Positions 32,306-56,117 of a DNA stretch of 64,000 nucleotides are shown in pieces. Positions within the stretch are counted from its first letter, which is position 1. Each line of letters opens with the position of its first letter. Position numbers and translations under genes: made by a program. This stretch comes from Candidatus Dormiibacterota bacterium. Its GTDB lineage: Bacteria > Chloroflexota > Dormibacteria > Aeolococcales > Aeolococcaceae. Location of the stretch: the NCBI GenBank assembly GCA_963709585.1, contig CAVPXI010000016.1, forward strand, positions 32,001 through 96,000, in the 5' to 3' direction. The notes below the pieces were generated by a model. That model was not told where the DNA came from. It saw only the letters and a list, made by a program, of their open reading frames with translations, and did not search any database.

Positions 32306-33519
32306 AGCCACTCGCCGATGTCCGCATCATCGCCATCGAGCAGTACGCAGCGGGACCTTTTGGAAGCGTGCAGCTTGCGGACCTCGGCGCCGATGTCATC
32401 AAGATCGAGGATCCGGCGACCGGTGGAGACATCGGGCGCTACGTCCCTCCATTGCAAGAGGGAGAGGACAGCCTCTTTTTCGAGACGTTCAACCGGAACA
32501 AGCGAAGCCTCGGTCTGGATCTCAAGACACAGGGCGGCCGCTCGGTGTTCGAAGACCTGGTGCGCGTCAGTGACGTCGTGTACTCGAACCTTCGCGGTGA
32601 CGTGCCCCACACCCTGCGGATCAACTACGACGACCTCAAGCACCTCAACCCGGTGATCGTGTGCTGCGCATTGACCGGATTCGGCATGACTGGACCGCGC
32701 AGGAACGAGCCCGGATATGACTACTTCCTGCAGGGGCTTGCCGGTTGGATGGACCTCACAGGAGAGCCGTCGGGTCCGCCCGCAAAGTCAGGGCTCTCGC
32801 TGGTCGATTACTCCACGGGGCTGGTTGCCGCAGTCGCGGTGCTGGCCGGTGTTCACGCGGCCCGCCGCGACGGGGTGGGAATGGACTGCGACGTCAGCCT
32901 TTTCGATACCGCGCTCGCCATGCTGACGTACCCGGCGATCTGGAATCTCAACGGCGACTTCACACCCGCGCGCACGCATCACTCGGCGCATCCATCGCTG
33001 GTTCCCTTCCAGGCCTTCCAGACGCGCGATGGGTGGATCGTGGTGGGATGTGCGAAGGAGAAGTTCTGGGTGCGTCTGGCCGTCGCCATCGATCGACCCG
33101 AGCTTGCGTCCGACGCCCGGTTCGCAACCTTCGCCGATCGCCTTCGCAACGCCGAGGAGTTGCTTCCGATGCTCGAAATCGTGTTCGCATCACGCACAGC
33201 AGGGGAGTGGCTCGACATCCTCGGTCGAGCCGGGGTCCCGTGCAGCCCCGTCAACACCGTGGCCGAAGCCTTGCGGGACGAGCAGACCACCGACCGGGGC
33301 ATGATCGTCGAAACCGAACATCCCCGCTTCGGTACGGTCCGTCAGCTGCGCAGTCCGGTTCGGGTGGGTGCTGTCCAACCCGAATACGTGCGCGCGCCAC
33401 GGCGTGATGAGCATCGGGACGAGGTGCTTCGCGAACTCCTGGGCTACGACGCAACCCGCATCGCCGAGCTCTCCGCCGGCGCAGCGTTTGGGCAGCCCGG
33501 GCCAAAAACGCCGGGGTGA
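32302..33519 (+). CDS. CaiB/BaiF family III CoA-transferase (mesaconate CoA-transferase-like)
   Basis: EQYAAGPFG, LADLGADVIKIE, NRNKRS, PGYD; ATGA overlap with mal. Confidence 0.88.
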   Translation: MKPLADVRIIAIEQYAAGPFGSVQLADLGADVIKIEDPATGGDIGRYVPPLQEGEDSLFFETFNRNKRSLGLDLKTQGGRSVFEDLVRVSDVVYSNLRGDVPHTLRINYDDLKHLNPVIVCCALTGFGMTGPRRNEPGYDYFLQGLAGWMDLTGEPSGPPAKSGLSLVDYSTGLVAAVAVLAGVHAARRDGVGMDCDVSLFDTALAMLTYPAIWNLNGDFTPARTHHSAHPSLVPFQAFQTRDGWIVVGCAKEKFWVRLAVAIDRPELASDARFATFADRLRNAEELLPMLEIVFASRTAGEWLDILGRAGVPCSPVNTVAEALRDEQTTDRGMIVETEHPRFGTVRQLRSPVRVGAVQPEYVRAPRRDEHRDEVLRELLGYDATRIAELSAGAAFGQPGPKTPG

Positions 33520-33541
33520 TTCGGCTGTAGGATCTGTCGCC

Positions 33542-36444: not shown

Positions 36445-36927
36445 GTGAGCGGGGACATCAAGCCCGATCGGCCGGCTGCGTTGACCGTCGGCTTGCTGCG
36501 GCCCTGCATCCTCGCCCACCTCGTCGGTGGCCAGACCGTATACGGGTACGAGCTGCATCACTGGCTGCTGGGCATCGGCGTGGAATGCGACCTGGGGACG
36601 GTGTACCGATCGCTCAACACGATGGAAGCGGAAGGGCTGCTGCACTCGTCCTGGGAGCGAACCGCGGGCGGGCGCAGCCGCAGGCGCTACGAATTGAGCG
36701 AGCCCGGTCTCGACATGGTCGACGCATACGTGGCCCCGGTAGAACAGCTGAAAGCGGTTGCTCAGGAGTTCCTCGAGATGCGCAGGGGTGGTGCCGGCTC
36801 ACCCGGCAGCGGCGAGTCTCATGACGGCGATTCCATGGAGCCGGCGCAGCCACGTGTTCGCCGGCCACATGCCTTGACCCCGACGAACCGCATCGCCCCG
36901 TTGTCAATGTCCGCGCCACGCGGATAA
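36445..36927 (+). CDS. PadR-family transcriptional regulator
   Basis: LRPCILAHL...YGYEL...GTVYRSLNTMEAEGLLHSSWE...RRRYELS. Confidence 0.85.
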   Translation: MSGDIKPDRPAALTVGLLRPCILAHLVGGQTVYGYELHHWLLGIGVECDLGTVYRSLNTMEAEGLLHSSWERTAGGRSRRRYELSEPGLDMVDAYVAPVEQLKAVAQEFLEMRRGGAGSPGSGESHDGDSMEPAQPRVRRPHALTPTNRIAPLSMSAPRG

Positions 36928-37050
36928 GTGCGCAACACACGGATTGACGCAGCCAGGACAGGTGGCCACAGTCCCATATCGAGGCGGACCTGGCGGGGTT
37001 TGATCCGTCGGTAGGTGCCGCTGCCAATCGCTCACATAGGAGGAGGTTGG

Positions 37051-38115
37051 ATGGCCACGGATACCGTGCCGTATGGGCGCAAGACCCAGCGGGAGTCACC
37101 CGTCTCCGATCTCCACATCGTCTGGGTCACCGCCGGCCTCGGTTGCGACGGCGATTCGGTGTCGATCACGGCCGCAACGCAGCCCAGCATCGAGGATGTG
37201 CTGCTCGGCGCGATCCCGGGACTTCCCAAAGTCCACCTCTACAACCCCGTCCTCGCCTACGAGAATGGTGAAGAGTTCATCAAGTCCTGGCACGCGGCTG
37301 CAAACGGACAGCTCGACCCGTTCGTGCTCGTCATCGAGGGCTCGATTCCCAACGAGACGATCAAGAAGGAAGGCTACTGGGCCGCAGTGGGAACAGACGC
37401 CGCGACCGGACAGCCCATCACCACATGTGAGTGGATTGATCGTCTCGCTCCGAAGGCACTGGCAGTGGTTGCATGCGGCACGTGCGCGACCTACGGCGGC
37501 ATCCATGCGATGCAGGGCAACCCGACCGGCGCCATGGGCCTTGCCGACTACCTCGGCTGGGACTGGAAGTCCAAAGCGGGCTTGCCCATCGTCAACGTCC
37601 CCGGGTGTCCGGTGCAACCGGACAACTTCATGGAGACGGTGCTGTACCTCCTCTATATGGTTGCGGGGCTCGCGCCGATCATCCCGCTCGACGATCAGCT
37701 CCGCCCGACGTGGCTGTTCGGCGACACGGTCCACGACGGCTGCGACCGCGCAGCCTCATACGAGCAGGGCGATTTCGCCGCCGATTACAACTCGCCGCGC
37801 TGCCTGGTGAAGCTTGGATGCTGGGGACCGGTCGTCAACTGCAACGTGCCCAAACGTGGATGGATGGCCGGTATCGGTGGCTGTCCGAACGTCGGCGGCA
37901 TCTGCATCGGCTGCACCATGCCGGGATTCCCCGACAAGTTCATGCCCTTCATGGATGAGCCGCCTGGGGCGCATCTGTCGACAGGTGTGATCGGCGTCTA
38001 CGGCACCGCCATCCGCGCGCTGCGGAAGGTCACCAACACGACTGTCAACAAGGAGCCCAGATGGCGTCACACGCGGCCCGAGCTCACCACCGGCTACAGG
38101 CCGACCACGTACTGA
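37051..38115 (+). CDS. hhyS: Group 1h [NiFe]-hydrogenase small subunit
   Basis: AGLGCDGDS, CGTCATYGGIH, PGCP, HDGCDRA, CLVKLGCWGP, GGCPNVGGICIGC; AGGAGG RBS; no Tat signal. Confidence 0.95.
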   Translation: MATDTVPYGRKTQRESPVSDLHIVWVTAGLGCDGDSVSITAATQPSIEDVLLGAIPGLPKVHLYNPVLAYENGEEFIKSWHAAANGQLDPFVLVIEGSIPNETIKKEGYWAAVGTDAATGQPITTCEWIDRLAPKALAVVACGTCATYGGIHAMQGNPTGAMGLADYLGWDWKSKAGLPIVNVPGCPVQPDNFMETVLYLLYMVAGLAPIIPLDDQLRPTWLFGDTVHDGCDRAASYEQGDFAADYNSPRCLVKLGCWGPVVNCNVPKRGWMAGIGGCPNVGGICIGCTMPGFPDKFMPFMDEPPGAHLSTGVIGVYGTAIRALRKVTNTTVNKEPRWRHTRPELTTGYRPTTY

Positions 38116-38128
38116 GGAGAACTGAGCC

Positions 38129-39916
38129 ATGACAGTGGTTGAGAAGGACGCCACCAGGACCAAGGACCCGGTCCTCGTCGACGTTGCCTGGGACCCGATC
38201 ACCAGGATCGTCGGCAGCCTCGGCATCTTCACCAAGATCGACTTCGCCAATCGTGTGGTGGCCGACTGCCGGAGCACGTCGTCGATCTTCCGCGGCTACA
38301 GCATCTTCATGAAGGGCAAGGACCCGCGGGACGCGCACTTCATCACCAGCCGCATCTGCGGCATCTGCGGCGACAACCATGCGACCTGTGCCACCTACGC
38401 GCAGAACATGGCCTTTGGCATCAGGCCGCCGGCCATGGCGGAGTGGATCGTCAATCTCGGTGAAGCCGCCGAGTACATGTTCGACCACAACATCTTCCAG
38501 GACAACCTGCTGATGGTCGACTTCTGCGAGCAGATGGTCAAGGAGACCAACCCGTCGGTTCTTGCCAAGGCGGAGAACACGCCGGCGCCGCATGCAACAG
38601 AGCATGGCTACCGGACGATCGCCGAGATCATGCGGGCGTTGAACCCCTTCACCGGGGAGTTCTACCGCGAGACGCTCCACGTCAGCCGCTACACGCGCGA
38701 GATGTTCTGCCTGATGGAGGGGCGTCACGTCCATCCATCGACGCTGTATCCGGGCGGTGTCGGCACGGTGCCCACGGTCCAGCTCTTCTCGGATTACCTC
38801 GTCCGGCTGATGCGGTACGTCGAGTTCATGAAAAAGGTCGTGCCCCTCCACGACGACATCTTCGACTTCTTCTACGAGGCGCTACCCGGCTACGAGGAGG
38901 TCGGCCGCCGGCGCATGGACACGGTGTGCTGGGGGTCCTTCAACGATCCTGACGAATGCGACTACACATACCGGCACATGACCAACTGGGGCCGTTCGAT
39001 GTTCGTCACCCCGGGAGTGGTTGTCGACGGCAAGCTGGTGACCACCGATCTCGTCGAGATCAACCGCAACATCCGGATCCTGCTCGGGCACTCGTATTAC
39101 GAGGACTGGGCGGACGATGGTGAGGTCTTCGTCGAGAAGGACCCGCTGGGTCACCCGATCGACAAGCGTCATCCATGGAACCAGACGACGATTCCGAAGC
39201 CGGGGAAGCGCGACTTCGACAAGAACTACAGCTGGGTGATGTGTCCCAGGTATCTGCACGAGGGCGAGCACCTCGCGATGGACACCGGGGGCGGCGCCTT
39301 CGCCCGTCTGCTTGCGACGTCGCTCGCGGGTATCGTCGATGTCGGTTACATCAAGGCGACGGGCACCAGCACCAAGATCTACCTGCCGAAGACGGCTTCC
39401 AAGCCCGAGGTGGAGTTCGAGTGGCACGTTCCGAAGTGGAGCAACGCCATCGAACGCGACCGGGCTCGCACCTACTTCCAGGCCTACGCGGCGGCAGCGG
39501 CGCTGCACTTCCTGGACAAGGCATTCGCCGAGCTGAATGCGGGACGCACCGATACGTTCACTCCCTTCACCGTGCCTGACGAGGCGATCGGCTGCGGCTT
39601 CCATGAGGCGGTCCGGGGCGTGCTCTCCCACCACGTCGTGATCCGTGACGGGAAGATCGCCAACTACCACCCGTACCCACCAACGCCGTGGAACGCGACC
39701 CCGCGCGACATGTACGGCACCCCGGGACCCTACGAAGACTCAGTGCAGAACACCCCGATCTTCGAGGAGAACGGACCGGACAACTTCAAGGGCATCGACA
39801 TCATGCGTGCGGTGCGGAGCTTCGATCCCTGCCTGCCGTGCGGTGTGCACATGTATCTCGGCAACGGCAAGGTGCTGGAGACTCGGCACTCGCCGAACTT
39901 CGGCCCGCAACCATGA
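38129..39916 (+). CDS. hhyL: Group 1h [NiFe]-hydrogenase large subunit
   Basis: L1 TSRICGICGDNH and L2 SFDPCLPCGVH followed by a cleavable C-terminal extension. Confidence 0.96.
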   Translation: MTVVEKDATRTKDPVLVDVAWDPITRIVGSLGIFTKIDFANRVVADCRSTSSIFRGYSIFMKGKDPRDAHFITSRICGICGDNHATCATYAQNMAFGIRPPAMAEWIVNLGEAAEYMFDHNIFQDNLLMVDFCEQMVKETNPSVLAKAENTPAPHATEHGYRTIAEIMRALNPFTGEFYRETLHVSRYTREMFCLMEGRHVHPSTLYPGGVGTVPTVQLFSDYLVRLMRYVEFMKKVVPLHDDIFDFFYEALPGYEEVGRRRMDTVCWGSFNDPDECDYTYRHMTNWGRSMFVTPGVVVDGKLVTTDLVEINRNIRILLGHSYYEDWADDGEVFVEKDPLGHPIDKRHPWNQTTIPKPGKRDFDKNYSWVMCPRYLHEGEHLAMDTGGGAFARLLATSLAGIVDVGYIKATGTSTKIYLPKTASKPEVEFEWHVPKWSNAIERDRARTYFQAYAAAAALHFLDKAFAELNAGRTDTFTPFTVPDEAIGCGFHEAVRGVLSHHVVIRDGKIANYHPYPPTPWNATPRDMYGTPGPYEDSVQNTPIFEENGPDNFKGIDIMRAVRSFDPCLPCGVHMYLGNGKVLETRHSPNFGPQP

Positions 39917-40852
39917 ATGGCAGCGCAAGCTCGTATTCTTGAGGAGCGAGAGCTCCAGAAGCGTCTCGCCCATGTCGACACTCTGGTCGGGGAGCTGCAA
40001 CAGCTCCCCGACCTTGCGTCGCGAGCGCTGGTCGAGGAGTTGCTCTCAACGGTGCTCGACCTCCACGGGGAGGCGCTGTCACGAATGCTCGACGCCCTCG
40101 GGCCGCGCGGCGATCCCGCGGCGGACCGGTTGCTCGAGGGCATGGCAGCCGATGACCTGATCCGCGGCGTGCTTCTGCTCCACGGGCTGCACCCGATGGA
40201 TCTGCGCAGCCGTGTTGAGGGGGCGCTCGAGTCGGTTCGGCCGTACATGCGATCTCACGGAGGTGGCGTGGAATTGGTCGGTGTCGCCGGAGACACCGTG
40301 CGCATCCGTCTGGAGGGTCACTGCCAGGGATGTCCCTCATCGATGGTCACGCTCAAGCTGGCTGTCGAGAAGGCGATCTACGAGGCGGCGCCCGACGTCG
40401 CCGCAATCGAGGTCCTCGATCCTCCGGATGCCTCTGTGTCCGGTCCGCCGGCGATCGTCGGTCTGGTGTCGCTTCCGGTCTTCAGTTCGTCCGGTCCGCG
40501 TCCGGCCCCCCGTCCGAGCGTCTCGCCGTCGGGAGAGTGGGTCACGCTCGCGGCGCGCGCCGCTCACATCGACAACGGCAGCGTCCTGAAGACCCGGGCG
40601 GACAACGACGCGGTGTTGATCGCTCGAGCCGGCGACGTGTTCTATGCCTACGTCGCCACGTGTCCCGCCTGTGAGGGCGGGATGGAGGCTGCCGCACTGG
40701 ACGGAGCCCAACTGGTCTGCGACCTCTGCGGCGCCCGTTACGACATCCGCCGCGCCGGCGCGGGCATCGAATCGGACCTTCGCATCGAACCGCTTCCGCT
40801 CCTGGAGGAGTCGGGAGTCCTGCGGATCGCGATCCCCGCGCGGCTGGCATGA
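39917..40852 (+). CDS. NifU-like plus degenerate Rieske-like Fe-S protein of group 1h clusters (HhyE-like)
   Basis: LLLHGLHP, VRPYMRSHGG, CQGCPSS; C-terminal CPAC...CDLC. Confidence 0.85.
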   Translation: MAAQARILEERELQKRLAHVDTLVGELQQLPDLASRALVEELLSTVLDLHGEALSRMLDALGPRGDPAADRLLEGMAADDLIRGVLLLHGLHPMDLRSRVEGALESVRPYMRSHGGGVELVGVAGDTVRIRLEGHCQGCPSSMVTLKLAVEKAIYEAAPDVAAIEVLDPPDASVSGPPAIVGLVSLPVFSSSGPRPAPRPSVSPSGEWVTLAARAAHIDNGSVLKTRADNDAVLIARAGDVFYAYVATCPACEGGMEAAALDGAQLVCDLCGARYDIRRAGAGIESDLRIEPLPLLEESGVLRIAIPARLA

Positions 40853-41478
40853 GTACCTCCGCGCGTCTTACGGGACTGAGAGGACTGATCCGCGAGCGTG
40901 TGCCCGCGGAACGGTGCGAGCTGTGCAGCGCCGAGCTGTCGCCGCATCCGCATCACGAGCATCTCTTCGAGCCCTCGTCGCGGCAGATCCACTGCAGCTG
41001 CACGCCCTGCGCCATCCTGTTTCCCTCAGACGCCGAGAAACGCTACCGTCGCGTGCCACGACGCCTTCTGTACCTGGACGACTTCGCGATGAGCGATATG
41101 CAGTGGGAGTTCCTCGCCATCCCGGTGAACATGGCGTTCCTGCACACCAGCGCTGCAGCGGGCGGTGTGCGCGCGTTCTATCCAAGCCCGGCCGGAGCGA
41201 CCGAGTCGATGCTCAGTCTCGAGGGATGGGAGCAGCTGGTGGCGGACAACCCGCTCCTGGGGAGGCTGGAACCGGACGTGGAGGCGCTGCTCATCAACCG
41301 TATCGGCGGGGCCCGCGATCACTACATCGCGCCCATCGACCGCTGCTTCGAGCTGGTCGGTCTCATCCGCATCAGCTGGCGCGGGCTCAGCGGTGGGCAG
41401 GAGGTGTGGGATCGCATCGCCAACTTCTTCGCTGAGTTGCGCAGCGCAGCGACTGTCAGGGTTCGCGCGCATGCCTGA
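40849..41478 (+). CDS. Group 1h hydrogenase-associated protein (DUF5947 / HhaA-like)
   Basis: ERCELC, CSCTPC, IPVNMAF, FYPSPAGATES, PIDRCFELVG. Confidence 0.85.
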   Translation: MSTSARLTGLRGLIRERVPAERCELCSAELSPHPHHEHLFEPSSRQIHCSCTPCAILFPSDAEKRYRRVPRRLLYLDDFAMSDMQWEFLAIPVNMAFLHTSAAAGGVRAFYPSPAGATESMLSLEGWEQLVADNPLLGRLEPDVEALLINRIGGARDHYIAPIDRCFELVGLIRISWRGLSGGQEVWDRIANFFAELRSAATVRVRAHA

Positions 41479-42133
41479 CCTGGATCTCGAGGTCGTCTCC
41501 GCCGGCGCCGAGCCGGACACGTTGATCCCGATCCTCAACTTCCGGCTGAGGATTCACGAGCGTGAGGGCCACCGCATCGATTCGATCTCCCTGCGGTGCC
41601 AGATCATGGTCCAGGCGACGCGCAGGACCTACGTGCCGGGTGAGCAGGAGGCCCTCCTGGACCTCTTCGGAAAGCCGTCGCGCTGGGGAACGACGTTGAA
41701 GACGATGCTCTGGACGCACGCCAGCACCGACGTCGCAGGGTTCGTGGGCTCGACCGAAACTGTGGTCCCGGTGCCGTGCACGCACGACCTCACGATCACC
41801 GCAGGCAAGTATTTCTTCGCCCTCGAGCAGGGAGAGGTACCGCTGATGTTCCAGTTCAGCGGCACCGTCTTCTGGCGCGACGACGATGGGAGCCTGCAGG
41901 TTGCCCCGATTCCGTGGTCGAAGGAGGCGGCCTACCGGCTCCCCGTGTCCACCTGGCGGGCCTTGATGGAGGAGCACGACCCGGACAGCGCATGGCTCTG
42001 TCTACGGCGCGACACTGTCGATCGCCTCAACCGCTACAAGGCGCACTCCGGGGTGCCGGGATGGGATGAGGCGCTCGCCCGCCTCCTCGCCAGCACCGAC
42101 GACCATGTCCCCATCGGAAGCGCACCGCAATGA
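41471..42133 (+). CDS. Group 1h hydrogenase-associated protein (DUF6084 / HhaB-like)
   Basis: LRCQI, LFGKPSRWG, VPCTHD, KYFFAL, FSGTVF, PWSKEA. Confidence 0.85.
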   Translation: MPDLDLEVVSAGAEPDTLIPILNFRLRIHEREGHRIDSISLRCQIMVQATRRTYVPGEQEALLDLFGKPSRWGTTLKTMLWTHASTDVAGFVGSTETVVPVPCTHDLTITAGKYFFALEQGEVPLMFQFSGTVFWRDDDGSLQVAPIPWSKEAAYRLPVSTWRALMEEHDPDSAWLCLRRDTVDRLNRYKAHSGVPGWDEALARLLASTDDHVPIGSAPQ

Positions 42134-43194
42134 CCCAGAGCGCGCTCGATCGCCTGGTTGCGGCCACGCTCTACGAGGGGTACATCCTCTACCCGTACCG
42201 GCCGTCCTCGGTGAAGAATCAGGTGCGCTGGACGTTCGGAGGCGTGCATCCGCGCGCGTGGAGCGAGGCTTCCGGCGGCACCGATCCATGGAGCGCGCAG
42301 ACCGAATGCCTGCTGCGTGCGACCGCTGTCACCACGGTCACGGTGCGTGTCCGGTTTCTGCAGTTGGTGACTAGAACCGTCGCGAAACTCGACCCCCCGA
42401 GCCCCTCGCTCGACGCCGACGCAGTCGGACGGCTCGAGGACGTGGATGAGTTGCGTGTGGCGGGAGTCAACCACCGTGCGTGGGAGGAGGCGATCGAGGT
42501 CGCCGTCGACTGTGGAACGCACGCCCTGCAGTCGCTCGTCGAGCGCGAGGTGGTCGTCGAGCACATCACGCCCGCTCACGACGAGGTGGAACCGCTGTGC
42601 GACGAGGGGGGACAGGTTGTCGGCGTCCTCCAACGTGAGCGCCAGCCACTGGCCACGGACGTGACCGTGACGGCGGACCGCGTCGGCGAGGATCTCGTCC
42701 GAGTTGGCGTCACCGTTCGCAACGCCAGTGCCTTCAGCCTGGATGGGAATCGCGACCGCGGGCGCGCGCTGTGTTCCTCGCTCGTATCGACGCATGCCGT
42801 TCTGGTAGCGAAGGACGGCGAATGGCTCTCGCTCGCCGACCCGCCCATCGATGCCGTCGACGCGGCCGCCGGGTGCCGAAACATCGGCCTCTGGCCGGTC
42901 CTCGTCGGCGAAGCGGGCACGTCGGACACGCTGCTCGCTGCTCCGATCATCCTCGAGGATCACCCTCAGATCGCCCCGGAATCGTCGGGCGACCTCTTCG
43001 ATGCGACCGAGATCGACGAGATCTTGAGCCTGCGCATCCTGGCACTCACCGACGAGGAGAAGGCCGAGATGCGAGCTGCCGACGCACGGGCGCGCGCGCT
43101 GCTCGATCGCACCGAGGCGCTAACCGGCGACGACCTGATGCGGATGCACGGCACGATTCGCGAAGTGCGACCGACCATCGGAGAGCGAAGGTGA
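42130..43194 (+). CDS. Group 1h hydrogenase-associated protein (HhaC-like)
   Basis: LYEGYILYPYRPSS.KNQVRWTFG, PIILEDHPQIAPESSGDLFDATEIDEIL. Confidence 0.85.
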   Translation: MTQSALDRLVAATLYEGYILYPYRPSSVKNQVRWTFGGVHPRAWSEASGGTDPWSAQTECLLRATAVTTVTVRVRFLQLVTRTVAKLDPPSPSLDADAVGRLEDVDELRVAGVNHRAWEEAIEVAVDCGTHALQSLVEREVVVEHITPAHDEVEPLCDEGGQVVGVLQRERQPLATDVTVTADRVGEDLVRVGVTVRNASAFSLDGNRDRGRALCSSLVSTHAVLVAKDGEWLSLADPPIDAVDAAAGCRNIGLWPVLVGEAGTSDTLLAAPIILEDHPQIAPESSGDLFDATEIDEILSLRILALTDEEKAEMRAADARARALLDRTEALTGDDLMRMHGTIREVRPTIGERR

Positions 43195-43518
43195 AAACGT
43201 TTGACCTCGGCGCCTGGGATCCCGACAGCACGGGCGGGACAACCGAACTCGGTGCGCTGGGGCGATGGGCTGCTCCATCGTGGCGATCGCGTCCGTATCC
43301 GGCCGCGCGGCCGCGCCGACATCATGGACATCGCCCTGCACGGTCGCACCGCCGTCGTCGAGTCCATCGAGCGCGATTACGAGGACGTCGTTCACGTCGC
43401 GGTGCTCGTCGACGACGATCCCGGCAAGGACCTCGGTGCGCTCAGGCAGCCTGGGCACCGCTTCTTCTTCGGCCTCGACGACCTCGAGCGCGTGGAACCA
43501 GCGGAGGAACTGCTGTGA
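43191..43518 (+). CDS. Small hydrogenase-associated protein (HhaC C-terminal-like domain); possible frameshift at ~43237
   Basis: GDRVRIRPRGRADIMD...DDDPGKDLG...GHRFFF; GTG 43191 overlaps the upstream stop and has a GGAG RBS but is 1 nt out of frame with the conserved part. Confidence 0.75.
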
Positions 43519-44018
43519 GCGAGGCCACGATCCTGGTAGCGGGGATCGGCAACATCTTCCTCGGCGATGACGGCTTCGGTGTCGAGGTTGCACGCCAGCT
43601 CGCGTCCCGACCGCACGCTGAGAGCGTGCGCATCGCCGATTTCGGTATCCGCGGATTCGACCTCGCGTTTGCCATCCTCGACGACCCGGCCGCGACCATC
43701 CTGGTCGACGCCATGCCCCGTGGAGAACGACCCGGCACCGTCTACGTCCTCGAGCCTGATCTCGACGTCGACGCCACACACGCCGATGGTTCGTTCCAGG
43801 GGCACGCCATGACACCGGACTCCGTGTTCGCCCTGGTCCGGACTCTCGGCGGACGGCCGCGCAACGTCACTGTCGTCGGGTGCGAACCCCTGACCCTCGG
43901 CCCTGAGGGCGAAGGCTACATGGGGCTGAGCGAGCCGGTAGCCGATGCGGTCCCCGAAGCGGTGGCGATCGTCGAGCACCTGCTCTCGCGGCTCGTCCCG
44001 ACAACGAGTGCGCCCTGA
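43515..44018 (+). CDS. Hydrogenase maturation endopeptidase (HupD/HyaD family)
   Basis: VAGIGNIFLGDDGFG, DFGIRG, ILVDA, HAMTP, VGCEP. Confidence 0.92.
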   Translation: MSEATILVAGIGNIFLGDDGFGVEVARQLASRPHAESVRIADFGIRGFDLAFAILDDPAATILVDAMPRGERPGTVYVLEPDLDVDATHADGSFQGHAMTPDSVFALVRTLGGRPRNVTVVGCEPLTLGPEGEGYMGLSEPVADAVPEAVAIVEHLLSRLVPTTSAP

Positions 44019-44380
44019 TGCACGAGCTCGGGCTGGCGGAGGGCATCATGACGGTCGCGATCGACATGGCCGGCGGCCGCACCGTAGCGCGCATTGCCGT
44101 GCGCATCGGCGAGGAGCAGCGCATCGTCCCCGACAGCCTCGAGTTCGGATTCCAACTCCTTGCCGAAGGCACCGTCTGTGAAGGGGCGACGTTGCAATGC
44201 CTCGTCGTGTCCGGGGTGAACGTCCTCGTCGACGAGGTGGAACTTGTCGGAGATCCACCGACGGTCCTCCGGCGCCCCGGCGCTCCGATCGTCGAGCCTC
44301 CGCACGACCACATACAGGCCGGCCACAATGGCGTCAATCCGGCGCCGATCACATCAGCACGCACGCAAGGAGGAGCTTAG
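44018..44380 (+). CDS. hypA: HypA-like nickel chaperone lacking the Zn-finger domain
   Basis: MHE Ni-binding N-terminus and VPDSLEFGF...EGTVCEGA; no CxxC pairs. Confidence 0.75.
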   Translation: MHELGLAEGIMTVAIDMAGGRTVARIAVRIGEEQRIVPDSLEFGFQLLAEGTVCEGATLQCLVVSGVNVLVDEVELVGDPPTVLRRPGAPIVEPPHDHIQAGHNGVNPAPITSARTQGGA

Positions 44381-44512
44381 GTGTCGCTCATGCTCGGTAG
44401 TCAGAAGAACGGCCTGCGGACGATCGTGCAGTGGTTGATCCTCGGAGCCATCGTCGGCGCCGTGCTCAACTCGAAAGACATTCAGCGGTATCTGAAAATC
44501 CGGTCGATGTAG
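44381..44512 (+). CDS. 43-aa small membrane protein typical of group 1h clusters (DUF6893-like)
   Basis: AAGGAGG RBS; MSLMLGSQKNGLRTIVQWLILGAIVGAVLNSKDIQRYLKIRSM*. Confidence 0.75.
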   Translation: MSLMLGSQKNGLRTIVQWLILGAIVGAVLNSKDIQRYLKIRSM

Positions 44513-44530
44513 GAAGCACCAGAGCTCACC

Positions 44531-45043
44531 GTGCCACGGTTCCGCGTGAACACCGCTCAATCGACGGTGAAGGTCGGCCTCAGGGTCAACCTTCACCCGT
44601 CGCACATCAACGCCGACGCGCTCACCGGGTTCATCGAATGCGAGGTGGACGACCAGGGAAAGCCACGCCTCGACCAGCCCTACCGCGCGGAGTTGACTCT
44701 GCCGGTGGATGCCATCAAATCGGGTAACAGCATCCAAGATCGGGAGATGCGCCGTCGCTTCGACGTCTCCCGGTACCCGACGATAACGGCGACGGTGACG
44801 CACGGCGAGGCACTCGAGGGTGAGGGCCGGTATCGGGCCGCGGCGCAGCTCACCATGCATGGTCAGACGCGCGAGATCACCGGCGATGTGCAACTGGGCG
44901 TCAACGGTACGACGATGTCGATCGACGGCCAGCAGGTGATCAACGTCAAGGAGTTCGGCATCGATCCCCCGCGTCTGATCATCCTGAAGGTGGAACCGGA
45001 CGTGGATCTGCAGGTTCACATCGTCGCGGAACGGGAGTCATAG
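44531..45043 (+). CDS. YceI-family lipid/polyisoprenoid-binding protein, no signal peptide
   Basis: LPVDAIKSGNSIQDREM...FDVSRYPTI, LTMHGQTREI, EFGIDPP...KVEPDV. Confidence 0.82.
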   Translation: MPRFRVNTAQSTVKVGLRVNLHPSHINADALTGFIECEVDDQGKPRLDQPYRAELTLPVDAIKSGNSIQDREMRRRFDVSRYPTITATVTHGEALEGEGRYRAAAQLTMHGQTREITGDVQLGVNGTTMSIDGQQVINVKEFGIDPPRLIILKVEPDVDLQVHIVAERES

Positions 45044-45070
45044 CGATAACGGTTTTTGGAGTGGAATGCA

Positions 45071-45265
45071 ATGCTTGAGAAGCTCGTGATCTTCGGGATC
45101 GGTTATGTGCTCGGGACCCGGGCCGGCAAGGAGCGCTTCGACGAGATCGTCGAAACCGCCAAGAAGTTCGCCGCGCGTGATGACGTCCAGATGGTGGTGA
45201 GCCTGGCGACCGGCTTCCTCGAGGAGCGGTTCAGCTCGACCGCGGAGCACCTGCGCGCCGCATGA
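45071..45265 (+). CDS. Small membrane-anchored hypothetical protein (YtxH-like N-terminus)
   Basis: MLEKLVIFGIGYVLGTRAGKERFDEI. Confidence 0.7.
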   Translation: MLEKLVIFGIGYVLGTRAGKERFDEIVETAKKFAARDDVQMVVSLATGFLEERFSSTAEHLRAA

Positions 45266-45269
45266 TTCC

Positions 45270-47627
45270 ATGACCGTCGCAACCCCACCATCGACGACCC
45301 GCTCGGCGGGCGCGAACACACGCGTGCGTGGGGTCGGCGAACGGCAGCGCTTCGCGGTCTACGGCGTCGTTCAGGGGGTGGGGTTTCGCCCCTTTGTCTG
45401 GAACCTCGCGACCCGTCTTGGGCTCGGCGGCTGGGTCCGCAACACCTCCGGAGCGGTCGTCATCGAGGTCGAGGGCGGGCGGATCGAGCTCGACGCGTTT
45501 GCGTCCGCACTGGGCACCGAGGCGCCGCGGCTCGCTCGAATCGAAGCGGTCGAGGCAGTGGCGATGGATGCGGTGGGGGAGATCGGCTTCCGCATCGTGG
45601 AGAGCCGGGCCGTCGATGGCGACTATCAGCCGATCGCTCCCGACGCGGCGACCTGTCCGGATTGCGTCGCCGATATCGTCACCCCCGGCAATCGGCGGCA
45701 CCGATACCCATTCACCAACTGCACCAACTGCGGCCCCCGGTTCACGATCATCGAGGACGTTCCGTACGACCGGCCCCAGACGACCATGCGCCATTTCGCG
45801 ATGTGCGCGGCGTGCACGCAGGAGTACGAGGACCCGGCGGATCGTCGCTTTCACGCGCAGCCGAATGCGTGCCCCGCATGTGGCCCACGGCTCTGGTGCG
45901 CCGATGCGCACGGCGTTGAACTCCCAGACGATCCGATCGATATCGCCGCCGGTTCGCTCGCGCGTGCGGAGATCGTCGCGCTGAAGGGGTTGGGTGGCTT
46001 CCAGCTCTGCTGCGATGCCACCGATGAGGCGGCGGTTGCGCGGCTGCGGGTTCGCAAGCACCGGCCCGCGAAGCCCTTTGCGATTATGTTCGCGGATATC
46101 GGCGGTGTACGCCGCCTCTGTGAGGTGAGCGACGCGGAGGCGGCGTTGCTGGAGGGGCCGGCGCGGCCGATCGTGCTCCTGCGACGCCGGCGGGATCGAG
46201 ACGCGAGCGTGGTCGCAGACTCTGTCGCGCCCGGCCTTCAGGAGCTCGGCGTGATGCTCCCGTATACGCCGATGCACCACCTGCTCCTGCGCGCCACCGG
46301 GGGACCCCTGGTGATGACCAGTGGCAATGTCAGCGAGGAGCCGATCGCCAAGGACAACGACGAAGCCGTGCAGCGCCTCGGCCACATCGCCGACCGGTTT
46401 CTCCTGCACGACCGTGACATCTATGCTCGCTACGACGACTCCGTTGTGCGGGTCGTCGACGGAACCCCGCGCATGGTCCGTCGCGCTCGCGGTTACTGCC
46501 CACTTCCGGTTCGAGTCGAATCCCGTGACGCGCAGGTGCTGGCACTTGGCGCGCACCTCAAGAACACGTTCTGCGTGCTTCACGATCGCAACGCCTTCAC
46601 CGGCCCGCATATCGGCGACCTCGACAGTCCGCGGACACTGGCCCACCAGGACGAAGCGCTGCGCACGTTCCTCCGGCTCTTCCGAACCAACCCTGTCACC
46701 GTCGCGGCCGACCTGCATCCGGACTACGCGTCCAGCCGCATAGCCGAGCGATGGTGGGACTCCGGGGCCCACGGGGTACGGGTGCAACATCATCACGCCC
46801 ACATCGCCAGCGTGCTCGCCGAGCACGGTCTGCGGGGCAGCGTGATCGGTGTGGCGTTCGACGGTGTTGGTCTCGGACCGGATCATTCCATCTGGGGCGG
46901 CGAGTTTCTCCTCTGCGACGAGCGCTCGTATCAGCGTGCGGGTCATATCGCAGCGGTGCGCCAGCCCGGAGGCGACGCCTGTGCCCGGGAAGGGTGGCGA
47001 ATGGCGATTGCGTACCTCGCGGCGGCCGGTGAACTCCAGGACACACCGCCCGACTGGTTCCGCGAGGCGCCGGGTGCGCCGGATCGGCGTCAGTGGCGGC
47101 TCGTCTCCCGGCTGGCGGCATCGGATGCGGCCCCGGTCACCACGAGCGCAGGCCGGCTGTTCGACGCCGTCGCAAGCTTGATCGGAGTTGCGCACGTGTC
47201 GACGTTCGAGGCCGAGGCCGCGATGCGCCTGGAAGCGCTTGCGACCTCCGCCGGCGATCTCTCCTCGGTCGAGGCACCCGACATCGGAGTCGGTGGCGAC
47301 CCGGTCGTTCTGGACACGGTCGATCTGGTCCGCACGCTGCTTCGGGAGCGGCACCAGGGCCGATCGCTCGACGTGCTTGCGGCGATGTTCCACGAGAGCC
47401 TGGCGCGAGGGATCGCGACCATGTGCGTGCGGCTGAGCGCGGAACTCGGCGTGAACCGCGTCGCGCTGAGTGGCGGCGTGTTTCAGAACGCCCTGCTCCT
47501 GGCCCGCGTGGAACGGCTCTTGCGCGAGCGCGACCTCTTCGTCTATACCAATCAGCAGGTCCCGGCCAACGACGGCGGCATCAGCCTGGGACAGGCGCTG
47601 GTCGCGGTTTCACAACTCGAGAGGTGA
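45270..47627 (+). CDS. hypF: Carbamoyltransferase
   Basis: GVVQGVGFRP acylphosphatase domain, CTNCGPR, FHAQPNACPACGP, QHHHAH, NDGGISLGQ. Confidence 0.96.
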   Translation: MTVATPPSTTRSAGANTRVRGVGERQRFAVYGVVQGVGFRPFVWNLATRLGLGGWVRNTSGAVVIEVEGGRIELDAFASALGTEAPRLARIEAVEAVAMDAVGEIGFRIVESRAVDGDYQPIAPDAATCPDCVADIVTPGNRRHRYPFTNCTNCGPRFTIIEDVPYDRPQTTMRHFAMCAACTQEYEDPADRRFHAQPNACPACGPRLWCADAHGVELPDDPIDIAAGSLARAEIVALKGLGGFQLCCDATDEAAVARLRVRKHRPAKPFAIMFADIGGVRRLCEVSDAEAALLEGPARPIVLLRRRRDRDASVVADSVAPGLQELGVMLPYTPMHHLLLRATGGPLVMTSGNVSEEPIAKDNDEAVQRLGHIADRFLLHDRDIYARYDDSVVRVVDGTPRMVRRARGYCPLPVRVESRDAQVLALGAHLKNTFCVLHDRNAFTGPHIGDLDSPRTLAHQDEALRTFLRLFRTNPVTVAADLHPDYASSRIAERWWDSGAHGVRVQHHHAHIASVLAEHGLRGSVIGVAFDGVGLGPDHSIWGGEFLLCDERSYQRAGHIAAVRQPGGDACAREGWRMAIAYLAAAGELQDTPPDWFREAPGAPDRRQWRLVSRLAASDAAPVTTSAGRLFDAVASLIGVAHVSTFEAEAAMRLEALATSAGDLSSVEAPDIGVGGDPVVLDTVDLVRTLLRERHQGRSLDVLAAMFHESLARGIATMCVRLSAELGVNRVALSGGVFQNALLLARVERLLRERDLFVYTNQQVPANDGGISLGQALVAVSQLER

Positions 47628-47633
47628 CGTGAC

Positions 47634-48269
47634 ATGAGTGTGCAGGTGGGACACGACCGCGACGCCGCTCTTGCGGCCGGTCGCGGCTTTCTCGATGAGC
47701 GTGTCGCGGCGTCGAACCGATCCGGCGAAGAGTACTTCGGCCAGCATGCACACGACATCGCCGCGTGCGCTGCGGCCATGGCGGATCGCTTCTTCGCCGG
47801 AGGGACGCTGCTCGTGTTCGGTTCGGGACCGCACGCGACTGACGCCCAGCACAACTCGGTGGAGTTTGTGCATCCGGTGTTGCCGGGGTGCCGAGCGCTG
47901 CCCGCGCTGTCGCTGACCAATGACATGGCGACCGTCACCGGGATCCTCCAGGGAGACGCTTCGATGGACGTCTACGCGCACCAGTTGCGCGTCCTGGGAC
48001 GGTCCGGGGATATCGCGCTCGCGTTCGCGCACGCGCCGGTGCACCCGTCGATCACCCGCGGGCTGGACGCTGCCGCGGCGGGCGGCATGCTCACCGTCGC
48101 GCTCACATCGGGCGAAGGCGGCACGGGGCGCGAGCAGGTGGACTTTGGGTTCCATGTGCACGGAGCCGACCGAAGCGGAGCTCACGAACTGCACCTGGCG
48201 ACGTACCACATGCTGTGGGAGCTGGTCCACATCGTCCTCAACCATCGCGGAATCGGAGACGTTTCGTGA
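47634..48269 (+). CDS. GmhA-like SIS-domain protein
   Basis: FGSG..ATDAQHNSVEFVHPV, LPALSLTND, ELHLATYHMLWELVH. Confidence 0.85.
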   Translation: MSVQVGHDRDAALAAGRGFLDERVAASNRSGEEYFGQHAHDIAACAAAMADRFFAGGTLLVFGSGPHATDAQHNSVEFVHPVLPGCRALPALSLTNDMATVTGILQGDASMDVYAHQLRVLGRSGDIALAFAHAPVHPSITRGLDAAAAGGMLTVALTSGEGGTGREQVDFGFHVHGADRSGAHELHLATYHMLWELVHIVLNHRGIGDVS

Positions 48270-48493
48270 GCACCGAGTGTCACGACGAGGTGTGCATCAC
48301 GTGCTCCGACCAGCTTCTCGCGATGGTGGTCACCGGCGTCGACATCGAGTCGGGCATCGCGCGTGGCACCATCGACGGATCGGTGGTCGAAGTCGGCATC
48401 GATCTCCTCGAGGGCGTCGCCGTGGGTGAGGTGTTGCTCTGCCACGGGGGCGTGGCCCTGCAGCGGGGTATGGCGGTGGAGGTGGGCGCATGA
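48266..48493 (+). CDS. HypC/HupF-like paralog
   Basis: CHDEVCITCSD...VGEVLLCHGGVAL; overlaps both neighbours. Confidence 0.8.
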   Translation: MSTECHDEVCITCSDQLLAMVVTGVDIESGIARGTIDGSVVEVGIDLLEGVAVGEVLLCHGGVALQRGMAVEVGA

Positions 48494-49167
48494 CCGAACC
48501 CGGCCGCGATCCCTTCTCGCAGCTGCTGTATCCGATGTTGAGCCCGCAGCCTGGAGCGGGTGACGAACTCGTCCAGGAGCTCGCCCGCGCCCCACTCGAG
48601 AAGTCGGCGGAGAGCAACCGCCTGCGCGTGGAGTTGCTCGATGAGTTCGGTGACGAGATCGTGAGTGCCGCACAGCGGATGGCTGAGGCATTTCAGAGAG
48701 GCGGGCGGTTGCTGGCCCTTGGAAACGGTGGCAGCGCCACGTCGGCAGCGGACATGGTGACCGAGATGCTCGTGCCCTCCGACGGTGGCCGTCCGATTCC
48801 CGCGCTCTGCCTCACCAACGACATCGCGGTGGTCACCGGGATCGGCAACGACGTGGGGTTCGGCGACGTTTTCGTTCGCCAGATCATCGCCCTGGGACGT
48901 GCCGATGACGTGGTGCTCGCCGTCTCCACGAGCGGGAACTCCGAGAACCTCGTCCGCGGGCTCGGTGAAGCCCGGCGTCGGGGCTTGTACACGATCGCGA
49001 TCTGTGGGTACGACGGAGGCCGGCTCGCCCGCGAACGGGTCGCCGACCACTGCTTCGTCGTTCGATCCAGCAGTATCCACCGGATTCAGGAGGTCCAGAT
49101 GACGCTCTACCACCTCCTCACCGAGTTGGTGCAACGCGCACTTGAAGGAGAGCCGGCATGTGCCTAG
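48490..49167 (+). CDS. GmhA-like SIS-domain protein
   Basis: GNGGSATSA, TGIGNDVGF, STSGNSEN, HRIQEVQ. Confidence 0.88.
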   Translation: MTEPGRDPFSQLLYPMLSPQPGAGDELVQELARAPLEKSAESNRLRVELLDEFGDEIVSAAQRMAEAFQRGGRLLALGNGGSATSAADMVTEMLVPSDGGRPIPALCLTNDIAVVTGIGNDVGFGDVFVRQIIALGRADDVVLAVSTSGNSENLVRGLGEARRRGLYTIAICGYDGGRLARERVADHCFVVRSSSIHRIQEVQMTLYHLLTELVQRALEGEPACA

Positions 49168-51923: not shown

Positions 51924-52148
51924 ATGGACCCTCAGCCCCGGATGTGGCCCCTCGACCCGGACGCACACGGCACCGCGCTGCCGGCAGCGGACGTGCGCAT
52001 TCAGACGGTGGCGTGCGGGCGCTGCGGCTGGCCCAATGCCTGCCGCACTCAGAGCGGGATGCGGACGCTGCGCTTCATGTGCCAGTGGTGCGAGCGGATG
52101 ACCACCGGGATTGTGGACCCGTCGATCAAGCGCAACGTGATCTTCTAA
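51924..52148 (+). CDS. 74-aa putative Zn-ribbon protein
   Basis: CGRC...CQWC pairs; fills the gap between hypE and cbbX; stop overlaps the cbbX stop. Confidence 0.55.
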
Positions 52149-53185
52149 CCCGCCGGCACGGCTCGCCCGTCGACCGCCTGCGCGTCGGGCGACTCGGTGA
52201 ACCACCGGCTCTTGTAGATGTCCTCGGCCTCGATGCGCATCAGGTCGTCGCGGGTCGCCAACCTTCCGTCCGAGACCAGCCGGTTGGCCTGCCGGAGCCG
52301 CGCTCGTTCCAGGGCATTCCGAACGCTTCGGGCATTGGCGAAACGTGGCTGGGTCATCCGGCGTGAGAGCAACTCCCGGAACGCCGGCTCGGCATCGCTC
52401 GAGAACGTGTACCGCTGGTGATCGAGCATGATTCGCGCGATCGCAACCAGCTCATCGAGGTCGTAGTCGGGGAAGTCGATGTGGTGCGCGATCCGTGACC
52501 CCATCCCGGGATTGCTGCTGAAGAACTGGTCCATGCGATCGCGGTAACCGGCCAGGATGACCACGATGTCATTGCGCTGGTTCTCCATGACCTGCAATAG
52601 GATCTCGATCGCTTCCTGGCCATAATCGCGCTCGTTCTCCTGGCGGTGGAGGTAGTACGCCTCGTCGATGAAGAGCACGCCGCCCATGGCGCGTTTCAGC
52701 ACTTCGCGCGTCTTCGGCGCGGTGTGCCCGATGTACTGCCCGACGAGTTCGTCGCGGGTGACCGCGACCAGGTGTCCCTTGGCGAGGTATCCGAGACGGT
52801 GGAGCACCGTCGCCATCCGCATCGCGACGGTGGTCTTGCCCGTTCCAGGGCTGCCCGTGAAGCACATGTGCAGGTTCGGACGTTCCGCCTCGAGTCCGAA
52901 ACGGCGCCGGGCCGTGTCGACGATCAGGAGCGCCGCGATCTCGCGGATGCGGGTCTTGACCGGATCGAGGCCGACAAGCTCGCGATCGAGGTCGGCGATG
53001 ACGTCGAACACGCCGGACGCGCGAGCATCCGCCTCGACGTTGATACCCGCCGGATCTGCATGCGGCTGTTTCGCATCGTCGGACACGCGCGCACCGTTCC
53101 TGCTTGCAACCTCGGGCACGGACTGCGCGAGGTCAAGGGCGGAGGGACGCGGCATCCCGAAGGGGACGTGGCTGTCCTGAGTCAT
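52145..53185 (-). CDS. cbbX: RuBisCO activase, red type
   Basis: [47 protein letters not shown]. Confidence 0.95.
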
Positions 53186-53188
53186 CGC

Positions 53189-53611
53189 TCAGCGCTCGTA
53201 GCGCTCTCCGGAGCCGCGATCGGCCGCATACGGGTGAATGGTGTACCGGAGCTGCCGATCAGGACCCTCCTGACGGTCGAGGCGGAAGCCCCGCTCATTC
53301 CCGGGACGCTGCACGATGAAGCTGAGCGCCGTCGTCTGGCGTCCCAGCCGCCGGTCGTAAGCGTTTACACGAACGTAGCGCGCTGGGTACGCGTCACGGC
53401 AGCGTTGCATCTCGAGGAGGATTGCCGCGGGATCGCGCATGTCGAACATGGGCAGGCCCCACATGTCCCAGAGGAAGTTGCGCGGGTGGGGATCGTCGGT
53501 GAACTCCACCGAGAGCGCCCACGCATTGTCGAGTGCGTACTGCACCTGCGCCTTGACCTGTTCGTCGGTGAGGGGCGGAAGGTACGAGAACGTTCCCTGC
53601 GTGACGTGCAT
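53189..53611 (-). CDS. cbbS: RuBisCO small subunit (red-like)
   Basis: [42 protein letters not shown]. Confidence 0.96.
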
Positions 53612-53622
53612 GTGATTCCTCC

Positions 53623-56117
<2,495 letters not shown>

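Follow-up and report, generated by a model that had tools for sequence, protein, structure and literature searches.

A leaderless YceI-family barrel encoded as an optional member of group 1h [NiFe]-hydrogenase clusters in two phyla

A 64,000-nucleotide stretch of a Candidatus Dormiibacterota genome (assembly GCA_963709585.1, contig CAVPXI010000016.1, positions 32,001 to 96,000), referred to here as the window, carries a complete cluster for a group 1h [NiFe]-hydrogenase (Hhy, encoded by hhy genes). Between two maturation genes of this cluster, hypA and hypF, lies a gene for a YceI-family protein with one small gene on either side. The hydrogenase-linked YceI proteins form a clade of their own that spans two phyla, and within 1h clusters YceI is optional and not a core component. 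As a tentative first choice, falling short of probable, we propose that YceI is an accessory binder of a polyisoprenoid lipid or quinone, probably menaquinone, that would act for Hhy at the interface between enzyme and membrane. Enzymes of group 1h have been credited with being the chief biological sink for H2 in the atmosphere, and 'atmospheric chemosynthesis' draws its energy from them. The three genes, on the plus strand as an earlier annotation of the same DNA (the preliminary description) had placed them, are as follows.

44381-44512, plus strand: p43, a 43-amino-acid (aa) peptide of family DUF6893 (Pfam PF21833)
44531-45043, plus strand: YceI, 170 aa (Pfam PF04264)
45071-45265, plus strand: p64, 64 aa, a conserved frame with no named family

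The YceI barrel and its clade

The window protein belongs to the YceI family by both sequence and fold, as the preliminary description had it. It matches Pfam PF04264 with 63.1 bits (cut-off 23.7) over residues 5-166 of 170, and is the weakest of six such matches in the genome, the others being five paralogues. The AlphaFold2 (AF2) model, built from a 40-sequence alignment, has a predicted local distance difference test score (pLDDT) of 94.8 and consists of an all-beta barrel with one helix; together with Foldseek it identifies the eight-stranded antiparallel lipocalin-like barrel of polyisoprenoid-binding YceI proteins. At E<=0.001 Foldseek returns 21 matches, every one a YceI structure, the best being TT1927b of Thermus thermophilus (1wub; template-modelling (TM) score 0.82, root-mean-square deviation 2.6), which also comes first in a profile search of PDB sequences (E 4.4e-9).

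TT1927b is likewise a single-domain eight-stranded barrel of ~170 residues, but it is only 19% identical to the window protein, which falls in a separate clade embedded in hhy clusters. To our knowledge, TT1927b is not hydrogenase-linked. The YceI-like polyisoprenoid-binding domain of Saccharophagus degradans (2x32/2x34) has the same fold (TM 0.70-0.76) and sets an example of a YceI barrel joined to an extracellular system with a redox connection, although it is part of a larger secreted protein and 15-17% identical. Its structures were reportedly solved with a quinone-type ligand. Escherichia coli YceI (1y0g), PA0423 of Pseudomonas aeruginosa (7bwl), BcnA and BcnB of Burkholderia cenocepacia (5ixh, 5ixg) and HP1286 of Helicobacter pylori (3hpe) share the fold (TM 0.77-0.81) and the Pfam family at 13-21% identity. 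Their structure titles and the abstract of PMC5350466 present solved YceI proteins as lipocalins that are secreted or periplasmic, or as sequesterers of antibiotics, whereas the window protein is leaderless and encoded in the operon of a cytoplasmic enzyme.

The start at 44531 is the first possible one after an in-frame stop, within an open frame of 176 aa. As the frame opens only six codons upstream of it, no leader is possible; the most hydrophobic 15-mer reaches a Kyte-Doolittle (KD) value of 0.73, and the first strand of the AF2 model starts at residue 3. The export signal of periplasmic and secreted YceI lipocalins of the E. coli YceI or BcnA type is therefore lacking, in agreement with what had been described. 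The same applies to the twin-arginine translocation (Tat) signal of HhyS, the small hydrogenase subunit, with no RR motif in its first 48 residues. Read from sequence, with neither a leader nor a Tat motif, YceI and Hhy would reside in the same compartment.

That p43, YceI and p64 are real genes and not chance frames is confirmed by their conservation with the same neighbours in dozens of genomes. Within the genus, measured in 3.5-kb loci, YceI is 70-97% identical, p43 70-95% and p64 mostly 77-97%, compared with 65-82% for HypA and 69-84% for HypF in the same loci. The gaps along hypA/p43/YceI/p64/hypF are 0, 18, 27 and 4 nt, and a simple scan of positions 44000-45270 returned no promoter-like or terminator-like site. 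Metatranscriptome contigs from three libraries of different studies, which at ~88-95% likeness represent relatives and not this strain, bridge the junctions hupD-hypA-p43 (X18 record 9, X20 record 29), p43-YceI (X19 record 19) and YceI-p64-hypF (X18 record 13). They support co-transcription weakly, as RNA libraries may contain DNA and a contig spanning two genes is not proof of a single transcript. Separate transcription, named beforehand as an outcome that would count against a shared role, is thus not what the packing and the contigs point to.

The reach of the family was assessed in two collections. A full HMMER scan of 1.84 billion representatives gave 274 clusters at E<=1e-10, the best of them ~165-175 aa long and aligned from residue 1-3. 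A species-level genome collection scanned with a 10-sequence YceI alignment yielded 291 relatives, the best 80 of which were kept as loci (numbered L below). Of these 80, 33 are Dormibacteria-type, and the other 47 are mostly from Actinomycetota (Acidimicrobiia, Ilumatobacteraceae, Microthrixaceae and one Mycobacteriales metagenome-assembled genome), with one Acidobacteriota record. Searches with the window proteins (tblastn) located hhy-specific genes in 62 of the best 80 loci and hyp genes only in 10 more, leaving eight with neither, one of them a 3.5-kb contig. YceI was therefore not absent from other 1h clusters, an absence that had likewise been named as telling against a link; the same clade occurs in 1h clusters of Dormibacteria and Actinomycetota.

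The Actinomycetota relatives are 35-43% identical to the window protein and stand in the order hhyS-hhyL-hhyE-DUF5947-DUF6084-354aa-p105-hupD-DUF6893-YceI-hypC-(p64)-hypD, compared with ...hupD-hypA-DUF6893-YceI-p64-hypF in Dormibacteria. In a maximum-likelihood tree of 78 rows, with near-identical Dormibacteria rows thinned to every fourth locus and two very long frames dropped, a long branch (starred; 98/94) sets the five other YceI paralogues of the genome apart from all 71 rows linked to hydrogenase. The hydrogenase-linked copies are their own clade, spanning two phyla.

The two small neighbours

Upstream of YceI, p43 matches DUF6893 above the Pfam gathering score (26.2 bits, cut-off 24.6). 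Its GTG start abuts the hypA stop, with GGAGGAG 5 nt upstream, and it is a predicted single-helix membrane peptide whose most hydrophobic 15-mer is IVQWLILGAIVGAVL (KD 2.39) and whose C-terminal motif is KDIQRYLKIRSM. The hallmarks of the family, a length of ~30-45 aa and one hydrophobic helix followed by a D-x-x-R-Y-x-K/R-x-R-x-M end, are all present, and the motif recurs in Dormibacteria and Actinomycetota copies; Actinomycetota homologues ending ...SLPDIARYLKIREM lie directly upstream of YceI.

The occurrence of DUF6893 and p64 was followed with iterative hidden Markov models (HMMs) over 120 loci, comprising the 80 YceI-centred loci and 40 sampled Actinomycetota hhy loci. DUF6893 is found in 70 of the former and 24 of the latter, these 24 all belonging to the 30 loci that extend beyond hupD; some sampled Actinomycetota loci have two tandem copies, and the sister Dormibacteria genus has two per cluster. 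Because 24 of the 30 loci reaching past hupD carry it, whether YceI is present or not, DUF6893 is a general gene of 1h clusters, near-universal and close to core. For the membrane attachment of Hhy, which still lacks an explanation, this one-helix peptide makes a stronger general candidate than YceI does. A full-text literature search, which covered listings, abstracts and searched passages of the papers in the library used, returned no paper on DUF6893, a family without described function, and no link of YceI, DUF6893 or a p64-like protein to hydrogenase. A comparative study of 2026 (PMC13332983) refers, in the passages available, to '6 genes encoding hypothetical proteins' in the 1h cluster of Rhodococcus equi.

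Downstream of YceI, p64 starts with ATG; as some orthologues also begin there, an alternative 69-aa form with a TTG start is less likely. The protein matches no Pfam or NCBIfam family, its 401 relatives are labelled 'hypothetical', and its neighbours in the Atlas have no Pfam family in common. Assignment as a YtxH, phasin or glycine-zipper protein was rejected, all matches being sub-threshold (the YtxH cut-off is reached by 0 of 28 members, with a best E of 0.016 in two). The family shares an invariant GY..G...G motif, and the AF2 model has helices at 2-34 and 37-63 with moderate confidence (pLDDT 72). The hydrophobic N-terminal stretch (KD 1.57) covers only ~11-16 residues, so that membrane anchoring is not established. 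YceI had been described as flanked by two small membrane proteins; this stands for p43, which has a hydrophobic helix, and has to be left aside for p64.

p64 mostly follows YceI and can be regarded as its usual partner. It is present in 50 of the 80 YceI-centred loci and in two of the 40 sampled Actinomycetota hhy loci, exactly the two with YceI, and of the 57 p64-family matches in the 120 loci, 56 have a YceI gene on their own strand no more than 1.5 kb upstream. The stricter rule that p64 occurs only with YceI was broken by 18 further Dormibacteria loci, two of which (L169, L171) carry p64 without YceI. YceI occurs without detectable p64 in ~17 complete Actinomycetota loci. In two runs of complex prediction, YceI (alignment A1) and p64 (alignment A3) scored 0.00 each time, where the mark is 0.32, with controls not folded; this speaks neither for nor against contact between the two proteins.

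The proposal that the three genes form one module did not survive these comparisons. DUF6893 occurs without YceI in many clusters, p64 can do so as in L169 and L171, L074 has p43 and p64 adjacent with YceI moved upstream of hhyS, and the sister genus reads hupD-p43-hypA-p43-hypF with neither YceI nor p64. The DUF6893-YceI pair, on the other hand, has remained intact where it has left the vicinity of hupD (L099, L106), and two loci (L079, L102) have it outside hhy clusters. Two degenerate clusters of the window's genus (L046, L017) retain YceI, a truncated p64 and hyp genes, while hhy structural genes are absent upstream and the DUF6893 frame is reduced to its last residues.

Possible roles of the barrel

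In the reading that we tentatively prefer, the cytoplasmic eight-stranded barrel, from a clade specialised in 1h clusters, would be an optional accessory of Hhy. It would bind a polyisoprenoid lipid, most likely menaquinone, and would hold or present it on the cytoplasmic side of the membrane, the side on which Hhy, having no signal, must pass on its electrons; contact with Hhy and an effect on electron transfer would be expected. p64 could be the usual helper of the barrel, and the DUF6893 peptide would stand apart from them as a membrane component of wider occurrence in 1h clusters. Menaquinone is the obvious ligand candidate for three reasons: MenA is present in the genome (217 bits, cut-off 102), the electron acceptor of Hhy is described as unresolved in passages of PMC6883350, together with its membrane attachment and its route to the respiratory chain, and the group 2a enzyme Huc needs a dedicated lipid-lined subunit, HucM, to reach menaquinone (according to passages of PMC10017518). 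Judging from its genes, the organism probably makes menaquinone; the futalosine pathway marker PF02621 has no match in the genome.

The likeness between YceI and HucM is proposed as a functional analogy only. HucM of Mycobacterium smegmatis is, in the passages of PMC10017518, a small protein encoded with an O2-insensitive cytoplasmic uptake hydrogenase that has no cytochrome b, and it gives access to menaquinone; a similar job could be envisaged for YceI. However, HucM is an alpha-helical scaffold that assembles as a tetramer into a hydrophobic tube and on which the Huc oligomer depends, whereas the window protein is a beta-barrel without the helical scaffold, has no homology to HucM and is optional among 1h clusters.

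Several observations weigh against an accessory carrier of this kind, and the first concern the window genome itself. Since at least three of its five other YceI paralogues (L002, L003, L004) have no hydrophobic N-terminal segment and only L005 has one, leaderless YceI is common in this organism and not special to the hydrogenase copy. The gene lies at the boundary with the maturation genes and not beside hhyS, hhyL or hhyE, and a PadR-fused sister branch, described below, fits sensing as well as a carrier role.

The patchy distribution points in the same direction. Among 301 evenly sampled genomes of the class Dormibacteria, 48 have an HhyL >=70% identical, and 25 of these encode a full-length YceI of the clade (24 of 45 when three genomes flagged unpublished are excluded, G423 with YceI and G303 and G471 without). 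By group, YceI is present in all 18 genomes of the window's genus, in 2 of the 14 from other genera of its family, in 5 of 12 from a second family and in 0 of 4 elsewhere; those 14 include the sister genus, which, with an HhyL 89-90% identical where matched full-length, has YceI in none of seven genomes. An even sample of 401 Actinomycetota genomes contains 45 with HhyL >=62% identical, and YceI was found in five of them with only eight first-look candidates scored per genome. A direct check of 40 of these 45 hhy loci with a YceI HMM from alignment A1, 30 of the 40 reaching past hupD, gave YceI in two.

Copies outside hydrogenase clusters complete the list. Six more genomes of the window's genus have YceI and no HhyL found in the search. 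Loci from two of them (L035, L036), as well as L072, hold a 70%-identical YceI without hydrogenase neighbours, that of L072 beside an Nramp transporter and a DUF4032 kinase-like gene. No HhyL was detected at E<=1e-50 in nine of ten genomes with such orphan copies, two of which belong to the same genus and are 86-88% complete, and in the tree the orphans are nested inside the hydrogenase-linked clade. The plasmids of PLSDB gave no YceI relative at E<=1e-8 (tblastn). YceI is thus missing from most sampled 1h clusters and is for that reason ruled out as the pathway by which 1h enzymes in general reach the respiratory chain. The preliminary description had suggested a module for quinone delivery or membrane tethering; a role as the route to quinone cannot hold for the whole enzyme class.

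The most serious rival to a carrier role is sensing, on account of the PadR-fused sister branch. Six proteins of 353-393 aa contain both Pfam domains, an N-terminal PadR winged helix and a C-terminal YceI domain; three are database proteins (P0217, P0255, P0271) of the same architecture, and three, of 358-393 aa, lie in the following loci.

L077, 8712-9890, minus strand: PadR-YceI fusion, both Pfam domains
L101, 2013-3176, minus strand: PadR-YceI fusion, both Pfam domains
L105, 1586-2659, plus strand: PadR-YceI fusion, both Pfam domains

The fusions occur in hhy clusters of Acidimicrobiia-type and some Dormibacteria genomes, where they lie upstream of hhyS, mostly divergent and in L105 co-oriented. 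Together with four unfused neighbours they form a sister branch (97/87) of the stand-alone YceI clade. They differ from the window protein in carrying PadR and in their position, as the latter stands alone among hyp genes of the same kind of cluster. In the light of this architecture, a YceI barrel can apparently serve in these clusters as the ligand-binding half of a transcription factor. The fusions are candidate lipid-sensing regulators of hhy, and they suggest that the ligand matters to the hydrogenase.

By extension, the window barrel might bind a hydrophobic signal, such as the quinone pool or a starvation lipid, and set hhy expression together with the upstream PadR without a part in electron transfer. 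We consider this unlikely, but there is substance to it: PadR and YceI are two genes of a single cluster in the window, a classical fused/split pattern, and tblastn aligns the free-standing PadR of the window with the PadR portion of the L105 fusion. In each of L077, L093, L099, L107, L115 and L118 the upstream YceI copy has a p64 paralogue of its own behind it, and no p64 paralogue follows the confirmed fusions in L101 and L105. However, a stand-alone YceI coexists with the fusion in L077, L101, L105, L115 and L116 and is therefore not simply its split form. The sister genus (L162-L166) has PadR upstream of hhyS without any YceI, and in the window itself YceI lies 7.6 kb from PadR, among maturation genes.

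Carrying and sensing could also be combined. DUF6893, YceI and p64 would then together be the missing membrane and quinone interface of the 1h enzyme where they are present: the peptide would anchor, the barrel would lift menaquinone to the distal iron-sulfur cluster, and the PadR-fused sister would read the same quinone to switch the operon on. This is a speculative scheme, and we regard it as improbable. If true, it would be a beta-barrel answer to the job that HucM does for Huc, with one ligand as both substrate and signal for the scavenging of atmospheric hydrogen.

Alternatively, YceI could be a general cytoplasmic lipocalin for lipids or xenobiotics with no specific role for Hhy, kept in place by linkage and by co-expression in starvation. 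Its solved relatives BcnA and PA0423 sequester varied hydrophobic compounds, according to their structure titles and the abstract of PMC5350466, and the five other YceI genes of the genome, the orphan copies without HhyL and the patchy occurrence among clusters would all suit such a passenger. Set against this are the 72 of the best 80 loci, from two phyla and with different gene orders, that keep YceI with hhy or hyp genes, its place in a distinct clade that is no random paralogue, and the persistence of the DUF6893-YceI pair after its move away from hupD. A mere passenger consequently seems a poor bet, poorer than sensing.

The least probable of the roles considered, and a very unlikely one, is that of a helper in maturation or assembly, acting in cofactor insertion, folding or membrane delivery, which in this genus might compensate for a missing HypB and a zinc-less HypA. 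YceI does lie between hupD/hypA and hypC/hypF in both phyla, and the window HypA keeps the MHE nickel-binding N-terminus and has no CxxC zinc motifs. HypB was not found in the genome with TIGR00073 or PF02492, only cobW-like matches of 24-28 bits; since the genome is 88.8% complete and 8000 bases were withheld from it, its absence is not proven. Most clusters, however, mature their enzyme without YceI, and HypB scores above the family cut-off (~249 bits) in three of five tested YceI-carrying genomes of other phyla, in two of the three within ~6 kb of the hhy cluster. We are not aware that a YceI barrel has ever been implicated in metal-centre assembly. Outright replacement of HypB by YceI is ruled out, as the two occur together in three Actinomycetota genomes, and the position of YceI in what had been called the usual slot of hypB is thus incidental.

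These comparisons provide a ranked set of testable candidates, in which DUF6893 is near-universal, YceI and p64 are lineage-specific extras, and the PadR-YceI fusions point to a lipid-type ligand that would also control expression.

The surrounding cluster

The map of the cluster is based on Pfam and NCBIfam profile matches to the frames of the window, and the whole hydrogenase cluster lies on the plus strand. The remaining features are listed below in order of position.

33368-36373: 1001-aa STAND-type ATPase with TPR repeats and a LuxR (GerE) DNA-binding end, just upstream of PadR
36445-36927, plus strand: PadR-family regulator, upstream of hhyS (Pfam PadR, 43.2 bits)
37015-38115, plus strand: hhyS, small structural gene of the group 1h [NiFe]-hydrogenase (Pfam)
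38129-39916, plus strand: hhyL, large structural gene of the group 1h [NiFe]-hydrogenase (Pfam)
39917-40852, plus strand: hhyE, NifU-like (Pfam)
40849-41478, plus strand: DUF5947 gene (Pfam)
ending at 42133, plus strand: DUF6084 gene (Pfam)
42130-43194, plus strand: gene for a 354-aa protein of no family (Pfam scan)
43201-43518, plus strand: p105, a 105-aa gene of unassigned function, found by HMM in 93 of the 120 loci, in both phyla
43515-44018, plus strand: hupD-type maturation protease (TIGR00072, 115.6 bits)
44018-44380, plus strand: hypA (Pfam HypA, match covering residues 1-64 only)
45270-47627, plus strand: hypF, with five HypF domains by Pfam
47634-49167, plus strand: two SIS-domain (GmhA/DiaA-like) genes flanking a hypC-like gene, between hypF and hypC
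to 51837, plus strand: hypC, hypD and hypE, after the SIS/hypC-like block
52145-55326, minus strand: cbbX (477.7 bits), a RuBisCO small-subunit-like gene and the form I RuBisCO large subunit

HhyL is 62-80% identical to its Actinomycetota orthologues. The genes from hhyE through DUF5947 and DUF6084 to the 354-aa protein are a conserved accessory set of 1h clusters, with their order kept across the compared loci. Among the 20 frames scanned with Pfam between 33.4 and 51.8 kb there was no cytochrome b, as had been noted before. The stop of p105 overlaps the start of hupD, a GTG with GGAGGAA upstream.

Three further observations concern the cluster as a whole. One genome of the same family (G216) has three HhyL copies, each ~83% identical to that of the window (C1:431523, C7:374943, C7:1324712), with the full cluster in only one of the three regions (L169). 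The SIS/hypC-like/SIS block is kept in most 1h loci of both phyla. Finally, the hydrogenase cluster of the window is directly followed by the cbbX and RuBisCO genes, which is the gene set expected for hydrogen-driven CO2 fixation.

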